DNA of 64,000 bases from a virus (Duplodnaviria; Heunggongvirae; Uroviricota; Caudoviricetes), in IMG/VR virus record IMGVR_UViG_2721755660_000001. The stretch is one strand, 5' to 3'. Made by a program: the position numbers. Numbering within the stretch: the stretch's first letter is position 1; each line of letters begins with the position of its first letter. This document shows positions 45,001 through 48,000 of the stretch, in pieces.

Positions 45001-48000
45001 TTAAAGAGAAATAATAAAACAATCAGAGAACCATTAGTCTGAGGCAGAAGATAGTTGGTGTTATCGTCCGAATGACAGGAGGATGTTAAATGGGGGTTGC
45101 TTCCGGATGGGTTGGCTCCTCTGCCGTTAGTGTAACTGGTGAAAGGTCAATGAAATCGGCAGGTGCCAAACTTAAGCTAAGTACACCGTTTTATATGTCG
45201 CAAATGGTTGGGAAAAGTGTACAGGACTTTTCTATCACTGTAGGTCGTTCAAATTTTGTTGTTTTAGTTCAGGCAACAAATATACAAATTGTTCCTGTAA
45301 ACAATAACTATGGAGGGTATTCTAATAACTCAACAACGACAGGTGCTGGCTCTGCCGTTTCCAGCCGTGTGCAAACACAAAATCCGGCTGGTTCAATAAA
45401 TGGTTCGTTGTTAGGTTGTTCAATTACGCATCTTTCTCAAACGCAAGACTCTACCAAGATGTATCTGGGCTTAACGAACGGGCCTAATCAAAACTTTACT
45501 CTATCATTTGATGGAACCAATATCTCATTCACACCATCATCATTTGCAAACAATACTCGGCATTATAGTGCAATAGTTTCTAAAAACTGGCTCTTTAATC
45601 AAAACGGAAAAACTATATCTGTTTATAAGGTTTAGAAGGAGTTGATAATGTACAAATGTGTTTTAGCTGTATTGATATTATTATCTGGTTGCAAATCTTT
45701 GCCAACTCCGCTTTGCCATGGTAAAGCATATTTAGGTGGGGAAGAAACTATAATACCAATTTATGGGATTAAGAAAAGCGGGAAGTATAAATTGTATCAT
45801 GCAGGGCATCACTACAACTGGCGTTGGGTTGGTGCTGGAGCATTTGACAGCACAACCTGCTCTCAAATAATGTAAACCGTATACTATGTATAAAATGTTT
45901 AGCTAATGCTAATTGATAAATTGTCATGAAACAGGCAAATCTGAAATACGTAAAGAAGCGCTACACAGCAGGAGATTTTTGTGTGGCTGGGTGCAGTGGC
46001 TGCCGTAATGATGCAATAAAAAGGGGAGCAACATGCTCCCCGACCAGAAGAAAGAAGTTTGATAACAATTAGTGAGTTGTTACGTCTCGTCCAGAATATC
46101 ATAGCAACACTCTGTTGCAGTGATACCGATCGCGATTTTAGCGAATTCCACCATAAATCCCCTGATTTTTAAGCCTGAAGCAGTCAAAGGAATTTCTATG
46201 CCTTATATCGATATCACCACGATGCGTGGGATGATGCCGCGCGTCGTGACATCCATGCTGCCCGATCATTCCGCTGTACTGGCGGAGGACTGCCATTTCC
46301 GGTTTGGTGTTATTACACCAGAACGTCAGATATCCGGGGTTGAGAAAACATTCACAATTAAGCCAAAAACAATTTTTCATTACCGTGATGATTTCTGGTT
46401 TGCGTGGCCGGATGTGGTGGATGTGATCCGTAGTCCCGTTGCTCAGGATAATTACGGGAGGATCTACTACACTGACGGAAAATTTCCAAAAGTCACGGCT
46501 GCTGAAATTGCCACCAAAGGAGAGGGTAATTTCCCTGCGGCATCATATCGTCTGGGGATCCCCGCACCGACAACAGCACCTGTTTGTACCGTTCAGAAGG
46601 GAGAAGGTGCCACTGACGAAAATCCGAATGATGATGAAACCCGCTTTTATACCGAAACCTTTGTATCGGCGTATGGTGAGGAAGGGCCTCCCGGACCTGA
46701 ATCGCTGGAAGTCACCGTGGGGATCCCTGATACTCCGGTTCAGTTAACACTCTCTCCGGTTCCGTTGCAGGACGCAAACATCAATCGTCGTCGTATTTAT
46801 CGTTCTGTCTCAGGGGGCGGAGAAGCCGATTTTTTACTCGTGGCTGAGCTTGAAGCATCCGTGCTCAGTTACACGGACAACATACCGGCGAAAAACCTCG
46901 GACCTTCTCTTGCAACATGGGATTACCTGCCGCCGCCGGAGAATATGACAGGTCTTTGCCTGATGGCGAATGGTATTGCCGCCGGATTTGCCGGTAATGA
47001 GGTAATGTTTTCGGAAGCGTATCTGCCGTATGCATGGCCCGAAGTGAATCGTCACACAACGGCTGAAGATATCGTGGCAGTCTGTCCGCTAGGAACATCA
47101 CTGGTGGTGGCGACAAAGGGCGAGCCTTATTTGTTCAGTGGGGTTTCACCGTCCACAATTTCTGGTTCAAAAATCCCGTCAATGCAGGCGTGTCTGAGCA
47201 GGCAAAGTATGGTTGCGATGGAGGGATTTGTGCTGTATGCGGGAACAAATGGTCTTGTGTCTGTTGATGCAAACGGCAATGCCGCGCTGGCGACGGAACA
47301 GATTATTTCACCGGAGCAGTGGCAGACTCAGTTTAATCCGGCCTCCATTGTGGCTTATCCCTGGCGTGGTGAATACATTGCCTGTTACACAAAACCGGAT
47401 GGTGAGAAGGATGTGTTTGTCTTTAACCCGGCAGGTATGGATATCCGGCACCTGAGCACACCTTTTGACTGCGCATGTGTTGATCTGGTTAACGATGTTA
47501 TGCGTGTAGTCTCAGGGCAAAACATGTCTGCGATGGCCGGTGGAAGATTGCCGTCATTAATACGATGGCATTCGAAAGTCTTTTCCCTTCCGGAAAGAAC
47601 CTCGTTTTCCTGTCTCAGGGTGAAGTCTCCGACGCCAGAGCGGGTGGGCATTACAGTGCTGGCTGATGATGTTCCGGTGATTCACCTTGCTCCGGGAAGC
47701 CTTTCGGGAAGCGTGGTGAGATTACCTGCTGCAACCGGGCAAAACTGGCAGGTACTGGTTTCCGGTTTTGGTCAGGTTGAACGTATCACACTCAGTACAT
47801 CAATGTCGGAGCTACCGATATGACAAAAAAACCGTGGCGCGCAGGGAAGGATTTATCTGCGGTTGTGGAAAATATGGAGATTGGCACAGGGCAGCGTGGT
47901 GACGGACGTCACGCCTTTGTGACCCGTGAAGAACTGGTTGGTCTGAAGCTGGCTCGTCGTCGTGCTTCTGGTGGTGGCTCATACGCCCTGAATCCGGGGG

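Follow-up and report, generated by a model that had tools for sequence, protein, structure and literature searches.

Does the AT-rich stretch behind the lateral tail-fibre gene of this phage encode a lipoprotein that shuts the phage out of its own receptor? The window analysed here, meaning the whole 64,000-nucleotide stretch of IMG/VR record IMGVR_UViG_2721755660_000001, belongs to a 933W-like short-tailed phage (Sepvirinae) of the Shiga-toxin type; the Sepvirinae are a group of short-tailed Stx phages. A first-pass annotation had described a Ser/Thr/Asn-rich protein of 181 aa and a lipoprotein of 77 aa at this locus, and had likened their setting to the classic arrangement of Cor-like superinfection-exclusion proteins that block a phage's own receptor.

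An adhesin and a Cor lipoprotein behind the lateral fibre

Both open reading frames are present as described (Table 1), and, given their many homologues and strong HMM scores, neither is a chance occurrence. The AT-rich stretch that holds them is also real (about 1.6 kb, from ~44621 to ~46197; GC 0.39 vs 0.496 for the whole window), but it begins inside the fibre gene, at the end of the collagen repeats, and not past the end of that gene as had been supposed. GC is 0.386 across the fibre tip and S74 domain, 0.397 in the adhesin gene, 0.386 in cor and 0.404 in the following spacer (45876-46197), with 0.512 in the nozzle gene.

Table 1. Features of the fibre-tip locus and of the needle-tip genes, in window coordinates
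Feature	Position	Strand	Basis or remark
Lateral tail-fibre gene, 754 aa	42750..45014	+	Pfam Collagen 9.8e-66, Peptidase_S74 4.8e-08, phage_tail_N; phrog_366
Fibre tip and S74 chaperone, left part of the cassette	44621..45014	+	GC, end of collagen, DNA identity
Predicted Gp38-family tail-fibre adhesin, 181 aa	45090..45635	+	PF21721, phrog_1121
Shine-Dalgarno sequence AAGGAG of cor	45636..45641	+	Read from sequence
cor, predicted Cor superinfection-exclusion lipoprotein precursor, 75 aa	45648..45875	+	
48-aa ORF (orf24 of phage 86; PI30_gp59)	45926..46072	+	phrog_32751, 1.4e-38; annotated hypothetical
Terminator-like GC hairpin, then T-run	46023..46041	-	Scan; in spacer ahead of nozzle gene
phrog_557 gene, 93 aa	49103-49384	+	phrog_557, 1e-32; after needle gene
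phrog_425 gene, 208 aa, terminal receptor-binding candidate	49381-50007	+	phrog_425, 1.9e-79

The fibre protein is homologous to phi24B gp61, the lateral fibre visible in cryo-EM, and is laid out as an N-terminal anchor, a coiled coil, a long collagen-like shaft, a short tip and a C-terminal S74 intramolecular chaperone. The collagen stops at aa 625 and the SDKRNK motif stands at aa 659, leaving a tip of 33 aa past the last Gly-X-Y. The Peptidase_S74 match (aa 659-714) has the S-DKRN-K motif as its first residues, and by analogy with the S74 family self-cleavage at Ser659 (nt 44724-44726) would free the last 96 aa.

The 181-aa protein matched Pfam PF21721 (Gp38_N) over profile positions 1-40 of 40 (E 1e-19, 70.6 bits with a cut-off of 25) and phrog_1121 (E 6.3e-66). 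Judged by these profiles it is a Gp38-type adhesin on the lateral fibre, an identity that the first-pass annotation overlooked. Its gene has AGGAGG upstream (45077-45082), an ATG start and a stop codon at 45633-45635, and serine, threonine and asparagine together make up 34.8% of the protein, vs 17.3% among neighbouring virion proteins. It follows a fibre ending in a removable chaperone, and the same layout occurs in L011 and L015. The protein comprises a putative fibre-docking domain (aa 1-44) and a predicted beta-sandwich receptor-binding domain (about aa 45-181); AF2 of the adhesin alone gave pLDDT 83-93 for the C-terminal half and a disordered N-terminus.

The Gp38 proteins of T2, T6 and the Salmonella phage S16 (PF21721 plus PF05268) share the docking domain and the place after a chaperone-ending fibre gene, and in them as in the window's protein a conserved N-terminus is joined to a variable C-terminus. 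Unlike them, the window's adhesin has a C-terminal domain that gave no PF05268 match (the glycine-rich receptor-binding domain of the T2/T6/S16 type) and is predicted to be a plain beta-sandwich, resembling the RB43-type 'unrelated C-terminus' case of Trojet et al. A structural search with the beta-sandwich returned no informative neighbour, and a PDB sequence search found no relative (the best hit, a glucanotransferase with E 0.29, was taken as chance). Over its full length the adhesin is 50% identical to SSU5_022 (SSU5 gp22), and the SSU5 fibre likewise ends in an S74 chaperone. Among studied adhesins gp22 is the closest homologue, and a paper citing the original SSU5 work reports binding of LPS core 'with the tail fiber gp22' (PMC12312913). 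By analogy with gp22, LPS core oligosaccharide is the most likely target of the window's adhesin, although with only 50% identity its receptor may differ.

The lipoprotein scored 71.5 bits with the NCBIfam equivalog NF047972 (cut-off 31; E 4.2e-20) and matched 74 of the 78 profile positions of phrog_1119 (E 3.4e-33), so that an HMM search supplied the similarity that the first-pass annotation lacked. It is 42-43% identical to the Cor proteins of phi80 and HK022 by MAFFT (40% by global alignment), 48-51% to SSU5-type Cor and 31% to T1-like and Dhillonvirus Cor. Aligned with phi80 and HK022 Cor are Cys23, Cys71, Gly30-Gly31, Tyr39, Ala52-Gly53 and the NWRWV motif. Like the window's protein, Cor of phi80, HK022, mEp167, N15 and T1 is approximately 75-77 aa long, carries a lipobox signal peptide, is encoded among tail genes and has the conserved cysteine pair and (N/S)WRWV. 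The top structural match of the predicted fold among 48,164 PDB chains was T5 Llp in its FhuA-bound form (PDB 8A60), with 14% sequence identity. These matches bear out the earlier suggestion of a Cor-like exclusion protein: by sequence, the lipoprotein is a member of the Cor superinfection-exclusion family with a predicted exclusion function, and family and fold suggest that it would inactivate FhuA and exclude FhuA-dependent phages.

A PDB sequence search found no relative of Cor, and PADLOC gave no model match for any of five proteins tested. A word-indexed search with Cor retrieved two near-identical proteins only, while a GTDB scan gave 11 loci. An exhaustive search with Cor brought up four long proteins of 1,087-3,206 aa that matched in many places; the two inspected were low-complexity repeats and were set aside as spurious.

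The usable start of cor is ATG 45648 (75 aa, MYKCVLAVLILLSGC...), as annotated in POCJ13 and phage 86; the 77-aa version starts at TTG 45642, flush against the Shine-Dalgarno sequence. Because the latter begins right behind the adhesin stop codon, with 6 nt from its end to the ATG and 12 nt from stop to ATG overall, an intergenic promoter has no space. A consensus scan found 4 promoter-like sites vs 4.5 ± 1.8 in shuffles, which leaves room for a promoter inside the adhesin gene, and the scan for plus-strand terminators 3' of cor found none. By contrast, cor of phi80 carries the annotation of a moron, complete with promoter and terminator. Since neither signal is recognisable at the window's cor, the gene is perhaps expressed only during lytic growth, which fits protection of the phage's own progeny better than that of the lysogen. 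The precursor has a predicted signal peptide (aa 1-14, nt 45648-45689) with an L-S-G-C lipobox (MYKCVLAVLILL-SGC) and a mature part of 61 aa; the predicted lipidated residue, Cys15 (nt 45690-45692), is invariant across Cor alignments, and Lys16 at position +2 points to outer-membrane sorting.

Limits and origin of the cassette

DNA comparisons delimit the exchanged segment. Its left part, the fibre tip with the S74 domain, is just 68% identical to P13374; identity is 65.6% to L011 (44690-45523) and 78% to L009 (44535-45704). A match to other Sepvirinae DNA restarts at 45999 (97% to PhiR12_3), which sets the right boundary at ~45999, and the 48-aa ORF spans this boundary. Minus-strand RNA of 45990-46130, around the terminator-like hairpin, has a folding z of -3.3, and an Rfam search of 44500-46400 returned no match, this hairpin included.

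The adhesin shares just its first 44 aa (64%) with that of P13374. This second adhesin, type B (phi24B, P13374 and 933W-like phages), occupies the same genome position on the same fibre architecture and has the same docking domain, but its receptor-binding domain is unrelated to the window's and no cor lies behind it; other Sepvirinae show this combination. It is with type A, and not with type B, that cor is associated. In an unrelated 225-kb phage, cor is flanked by an adhesin of each type, A before it and B after it, and this B adhesin has 59% identity to the P13374 type. There the gap between adhesin and cor is 10 nt, and Cor is intact, every conserved residue being kept at 57% identity. 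Such recurring adjacency could mean that the two proteins are functionally paired.

In other phages, cor has a different neighbour. The notion that a lipoprotein beside the tail genes is a classic arrangement did not hold for this setting: in 83 of 83 other (non-Stx) loci, cor lies directly behind the phrog_557/phrog_425 pair and not behind a fibre adhesin. It also follows phrog_425 in phi80, HK022, JLBYU60 and one T1-like phage, and the same cor and phrog_425 cassette has been described previously (PMC13164509). Unlike cor of the phi80/HK022 type, the window's gene sits behind a Gp38-type adhesin, its phage is a podophage with BamA-using relatives, and the phrog_557/phrog_425 pair lies 3.2 kb downstream, past the needle gene. 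The phrog_425 protein of the window is 96% identical to that of the cor-less Sepvirinae phage P13374 and 23-27% identical to its counterparts in phi80, HK022, JLBYU60 and SSU5, a set that includes phages dependent on the outer-membrane transporter FhuA. The Sepvirinae variant of the pair has been proposed in the literature to bind BamA.

Outside the Sepvirinae, the nearest relatives of both proteins belong to SSU5-like phage-plasmids, where the genes run adhesin, phrog_557, phrog_425, cor. SSU5 differs from the window's phage in having the two genes between adhesin and cor and in its virion, which is that of a siphovirus and includes a J protein; in relatives of SSU5, a second GP38 gene, of the T2 type, follows cor. 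In one Sepvirinae lineage the adhesin is kept (76% identity), and a deletion of ~430 bp has cut cor to about its first 27 codons. We conclude that cor probably came as the adhesin's passenger from an SSU5-like arrangement minus its two middle genes.

Receptor use and the role of Cor

The proposal that Cor blocks the phage's own receptor found no support. In phages phi296, phi315, phi367 and phi419 the module is 99.9% identical to the window's. In spot assays with a rough K-12 strain, these phages lyse the Keio fhuA, tonB, btuB, fepA, fecA and fhuE knockouts, the mutants still lysed being fhuA, tonB and 52 other OMP knockouts, and all four phages are neutralised by purified BamA (PMC12502783). 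Also counting against it are the LPS-core binding reported for SSU5 gp22, the usual place of cor behind phrog_425, the 96% identity of the window's phrog_425 protein to that of cor-less P13374, and the separate prophages that hold the module and Stx2a in O104:H4 2011C-3493. T5 Llp blocks T5's own receptor, whereas the window's phage type does not need FhuA. Because irreversible adsorption of this phage type uses BamA, Cor most likely excludes other FhuA-dependent phages (T1, T5 and phi80 types) and not its own phage. We lean, by a little over an even chance, towards reading 44621-45998 as a fibre-tip cassette that can be exchanged and whose Cor keeps out other phages, those of the FhuA type.

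Under this reading, the S74 chaperone would trimerise the fibre tip and then, as inferred from its family, cut itself off at Ser659, and the conserved first 44 residues of the adhesin would dock on the exposed tip. Initial, reversible attachment to the cell would fall to the beta-sandwich domain, and irreversible adsorption would proceed via BamA through the needle-tip proteins encoded at 49103-50007. Cor would be translated from the same late transcript and bind FhuA, or perhaps a related TonB-dependent transporter, from the periplasmic side, as T5 Llp and the Cor proteins of phi80, HK022 and T1 do. Family membership and fold suggest that a transporter so bound would be unusable as a phage receptor.

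It is conceivable, though unlikely, that the Cor clade of the window, L011 and SSU5-like phages acts not on FhuA but on a different TonB-dependent transporter, namely the receptor of SSU5-type phrog_425. Proteins of that type are only 22-28% identical to FhuA-type phrog_425 proteins (54-85% identical among themselves), as distant as the BamA-associated Sepvirinae type, and for this reason the target of the clade may not be FhuA. Cor-like proteins have also been reported in BtuB-dependent phages, and the use of Llp-fold proteins has been put forward as a general way of countering TonB-dependent transporters. However, T1-like Cor stands at 36-37% and the window's Cor at 40% identity to Cor of phi80 and HK022, and all those act on FhuA; the window's protein also passes the NCBIfam Cor equivalog threshold, and its best structural match is Llp bound to FhuA.

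We give still less weight to the adhesin and Cor being a cognate pair, in which the adhesin recognises FhuA or a different TonB-dependent transporter and late Cor masks that receptor, sparing progeny from loss on debris and the cell from superinfection, as T5 Llp does for pb5. The 12-nt gap, coupled translation signals and lack of a promoter or terminator for cor itself would fit such a pair, as would the adjacency in the 225-kb phage and the restriction of cor to type A. The lateral fibre of Sp5 is essential, and therefore fibres matter for infection. Set against this are the knockouts lysed by module-identical phages, the phrog_425 gene preceding cor in the 83 other loci, and the lineage that kept the adhesin and lost most of cor; moreover, the LPS core reported as the target of SSU5 gp22 could not be masked by a lipoprotein facing the periplasm. 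A specific form, in which the first receptor of the lateral fibres would be a TonB-dependent transporter, FhuA or another, that the phage can do without and that Cor masks during lytic growth, seems to us a shade more doubtful again. If true, it would make this the first Cor/Llp-type protein partnered with a Gp38-type fibre adhesin instead of a tail-tip receptor-binding protein, and would imply an entry route with two protein receptors in Shiga-toxin phages.

That cor is a functionless relic decaying alongside the adhesin is highly improbable: the truncated cor of the related lineage, the missing promoter and E. coli carriers that are silent on selection would allow it, but the reading frame is intact, its Shine-Dalgarno sequence is good, and the lipobox, the NWRWV motif and the three conserved cysteines are all in place; the fold is predicted with confidence, and cor has stayed intact in the adhesin-cor setting of the distant 225-kb phage.

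Distribution and significance

The exclusion of other phages by Cor remains our preferred reading of a finding that is real but ordinary, the gene names being already public. Identical sequences are labelled 'cor' in Stx2 phage 86 (2006), POCJ13 and RefSeq E. coli genomes; the papers on phages 86 and POCJ13 contain no discussion of cor. The module is present in 52 of 5,426 complete E. coli genomes, and the carriers, being 99.5-100% identical, are uninformative about selection. It occurs in prophages of strains that matter in the clinic, namely those of O111:H8/NM, of the O104:H4 outbreak clone and of Stx1-positive Shigella flexneri. In O104:H4 2011C-3493 it lies in a second Sepvirinae prophage, apart from the cor-less Stx2a prophage of that strain (P13374 type).

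These results leave the current understanding of Cor and Gp38 proteins as it is, and their outcome is the correct naming of two genes and a clearer view of fibre-tip swapping in short-tailed Shiga-toxin phages. If Cor is active, carriers would resist phages that depend on FhuA (T1, T5 and phi80 types), which bears on phage control of Shiga-toxin-producing E. coli, and their ferrichrome uptake and their sensitivity to albomycin and colicin M might change. The type of adhesin, in turn, may help to account for which strains are within reach of toxin-carrying phages.

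Gene content and limits of the low-GC cassette

The window is DNA of a 933W-like, short-tailed member of the Sepvirinae, the Shiga-toxin phage group, and the 25 kb flanking the fibre-tip region is about 95% identical to Stx phages. Shigella phage POCJ13 and Stx1a phage Stx1_2409 share 44700-46150 at 100% identity; in Stx2 phage 86 and in four EHEC-derived phage isolates of 2025 the figure is 99.9%. The first-pass annotation described an AT-rich stretch following the tail fibre gene. The low GC was confirmed (adhesin 0.397, cor 0.386, spacer 3' of cor 0.404; window 0.496, next gene 0.512), but the left edge of the stretch falls within the fibre gene, at the end of the collagen repeats (~44621). 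In a comparison with the Stx2a phage P13374, the fibre tip (44467-44994) is only 68% identical, 44995-46197 is unrelated, and similarity returns at 46198, a start of the nozzle gene. Similarity to PhiR12_3 reaches 97% from 45999 on.

Features of the fibre-tip region and of the distal gene pair, in window coordinates
Feature	Coordinates	Strand	Remarks
Lateral fibre gene	42750-45014	+	754 aa
Repeat inside collagen shaft	44022-44618		243-bp unit x2.5, 98% match
Adhesin gene	45090-45635	+	181 aa; AGGAGG 5' of ATG
Shine-Dalgarno AAGGAG	45636-45641		abutted by TTG 45642
cor	45648-45875	+	ATG start; 75 aa
Promoter-like site	45844-45871		TTGACA-16-AATAAT, 11/12 to consensus; inside cor end, just 5' of 48-aa ORF
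48-aa basic, cysteine-rich ORF	45926-46072		phrog_32751, function undefined
Folding RNA stretch	45990-46130	-	141 nt
Strong terminator-like hairpin and T-run	46041-46023	-	spacer before nozzle gene
Next (nozzle) gene, start	46120, 46123 or 46198	+	GTG 46120 in mechanical ORF list (567 aa); ATG 46123 in phage 86 (566 aa); ATG 46198 in POCJ13 and O104:H4 prophage (541 aa)
phrog_557 and phrog_425 genes	49103-50007		GC 0.42 and 0.41

The gene 5' of the adhesin encodes a lateral fibre. Behind its N-terminal anchor runs a long collagen triple helix, then a tip of 33 residues, and the protein closes with a Peptidase_S74 intramolecular chaperone starting at the motif S659-DKRN-K664. Cryo-EM of phi24B showed six lateral fibres, which are formed by the homologue gp61. 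POCJ13 and phage 86 have fibres of 673 aa and the O104:H4 prophage one of 635 aa; the shaft therefore varies by whole 81-residue units. As in T2 and S16, a fibre with a removable chaperone is followed by a small adhesin gene.

That adhesin had been recorded only as a Ser/Thr/Asn-rich protein. The open reading frame is real, and its identity had been missed: residues 1-40 match Pfam Gp38_N (PF21721, 1e-19, 70.6 bits against a cut-off of 25) and the full protein matches phrog_1121, 'tail fiber adhesin' (6.3e-66). No match to the T2-type family PF05268 was found in its C-terminal two-thirds. AlphaFold, run on the adhesin alone, gave a confident beta-sandwich at residues ~100-181 and a disordered N-terminus, as expected of a domain that would fold onto the fibre. 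Structure searches returned nothing informative except other Gp38_N proteins. P13374 carries in the same genome place an adhesin with a common 44-residue docking domain (64%) but a different remainder, and it lacks cor.

The lipoprotein gene also stood, although not its proposed length of 77 aa, as the TTG start abuts the Shine-Dalgarno sequence. The ATG start, which public records share, gives a protein beginning MYKCVLAVLILLSGC. The suggestion that it is Cor-like was borne out by HMM searches: it matches phrog_1119, 'Cor superinfection exclusion protein' (3.4e-33), and passes the NCBIfam equivalog NF047972 with 71.5 bits (cut-off 31). Alignment with the Cor proteins of phi80 and HK022 gave 40-43% identity, with the lipobox cysteine, two further cysteines and an NWRWV motif kept. 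This identity agrees with recent reports that Cor and Llp have a common fold, and with a prediction that places T1-type Cor on FhuA's periplasmic face. Both genes were already annotated with these functions; because the gene has been called cor in phage 86 since 2006 and its product 'phage exclusion lipoprotein Cor' in RefSeq E. coli genomes, the lipoprotein's identity is settled and not new. A scan detected no transcription signals of cor's own, a result that would fit a lytic-cycle function like that of Llp. A protein search with the 75-aa Cor also gave multi-stretch matches to four long proteins (1,087-3,206 aa), which were rejected; their E-values are artefactual, as the two inspected are built of low-complexity repeats (a 57-residue tandem repeat and FG-GAP-like ones).

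The 48-aa open reading frame spans the right cassette boundary, and its two halves are therefore of different origin. On the minus strand, the 141-nt stretch folds better than 200 of 200 shuffles (z -3.3) and has no match in Rfam; other Sepvirinae share this part of the spacer (97% from 45999). A small antisense RNA is one candidate reading, the end of a minus-strand unit another. The next gene, labelled 'internal virion protein' in PHROGs, matches in position gp57, the hexameric tail nozzle described by cryo-EM in phi24B.

Relatives of the adhesin-cor block

A second 933W-like prophage of the 2011 outbreak strain E. coli O104:H4 2011C-3493 (2557057-2571867) carries the module at 99.5% identity. 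The separate Stx2a prophage of this strain (P13374 type) lacks cor and bears the other type of adhesin; such coexistence is at least consistent with a Cor that does not exclude phages of that type.

Homologues of the window adhesin were found in three other settings. SSU5-like phage-plasmids have the order J, fibre with S74, adhesin, phrog_557, phrog_425, Cor. Three of four such loci, L015-L017 but not L018, carry 3' of cor a second adhesin gene, a GP38 of the T2 type (7992-8816; 274 aa, PF05268), giving two alternative adhesins for one fibre. Four 225-kb metagenome scaffolds (L011-L014, locus 1640-7306) encode a fibre of 1,439-1,479 aa with an S74 end, an adhesin (69%), Cor (57%, 10-nt gap) and a second adhesin 59% identical to the P13374/phi24B type. 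This tandem of adhesin A, Cor and adhesin B gives the impression of a stock of fibre tips to choose between. Its carrier matched nothing in the phage collection except over a 135-bp stretch and is an uncharacterised large phage. In one Sepvirinae lineage (L009, 6546-6660, and L010), the adhesin is kept at 76% identity and cor is reduced to a stump, in which the signal peptide and the LLSGC lipobox are followed by eight more codons (QTLPEPVC), joined by deletion to sequence equivalent to window 46137. Because this lineage lost it, cor is dispensable.

The position of cor in the window is atypical. In phi80, HK022, Dhillonvirus JLBYU60, a T1-like phage and SSU5, cor lies directly 3' of genes of phrog_557 (~100 aa) and phrog_425 (190-224 aa), which follow the central tail-tip gene. 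This 'extended cor cassette' has been linked to FhuA use (PMC13164509), and the 'hand-like' phrog_425 protein has been proposed as the real receptor binder. The flanks of 91 Cor loci, drawn from genomes in IMG/VR and GTDB, were scored. A phrog_425 homologue ends just 5' of cor in all 83 non-Stx loci having upstream sequence. The seven Stx-type loci are the exception, with a Gp38-type adhesin directly 5' of cor in six; in the seventh, the sequence ends 75 nt upstream of cor. The window has its own pair of the two families that precede cor in FhuA-dependent phages, 3.2 kb 3' of cor and after the needle gene. This Sepvirinae-type terminal receptor-binding candidate is 96% identical to that of P13374 but only 23-27% identical to FhuA-type pairs, and a pair of this type has been proposed to bind BamA in phi24B.

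Receptor use and the likely role of Cor

The first-pass annotation had further proposed that Cor blocks the phage's own receptor, which the available evidence does not support. In a 2025 study of EHEC phages, seven podophages spotted on 54 Keio outer-membrane knockouts, including fhuA, tonB, btuB, fepA, fecA and fhuE, lysed them all, and pre-incubation with purified BamA lowered titres 100- to 1000-fold (PMC12502783). Four of the seven (phi296, phi315, phi367 and phi419) carry the module at 99.9% identity, and the cited experiments show BamA dependence and FhuA independence for module-bearing phages. The closest studied adhesin homologue, SSU5 gp22 (50% identical), is mentioned in a citing paper as binding the LPS core oligosaccharide (PMC12312913). 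A periplasm-side lipoprotein cannot mask the LPS core. The original observation was confirmed and its interpretation partly supported.

The analysis itself shows the gene identities, the cassette limits, the predicted fold, the unusual place of cor and a terminal receptor-binding candidate of the P13374-like Sepvirinae type. In the most likely mechanism, the S74 chaperone would cleave at Ser659 and the adhesin would dock via its first 44 residues, making a first, reversible contact, probably with the LPS core. cor would share a transcript with the tail genes. Its product would be lipidated, reach the outer membrane and there act from the periplasmic side to inactivate FhuA or a related TonB-dependent transporter. 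This Cor clade may have a target other than FhuA: SSU5-type phrog_425 is as far from the FhuA-type group as is the BamA-associated Sepvirinae type, and Cor-like proteins accompany BtuB phages too (PMC13164509). The adjacency of adhesin and cor, kept across 57% divergence, leaves a low probability that the two form a cognate pair.

In the simplest history, an SSU5-like block (adhesin, phrog_557, phrog_425, cor) would first have lost the genes in its middle and later travelled along with the fibre tip. Only the context is mildly new: cor parted from its usual partner genes, and fibre tips as exchangeable cassettes. In the mechanism that we favour, Cor would keep out other phages and not the one carrying its gene.
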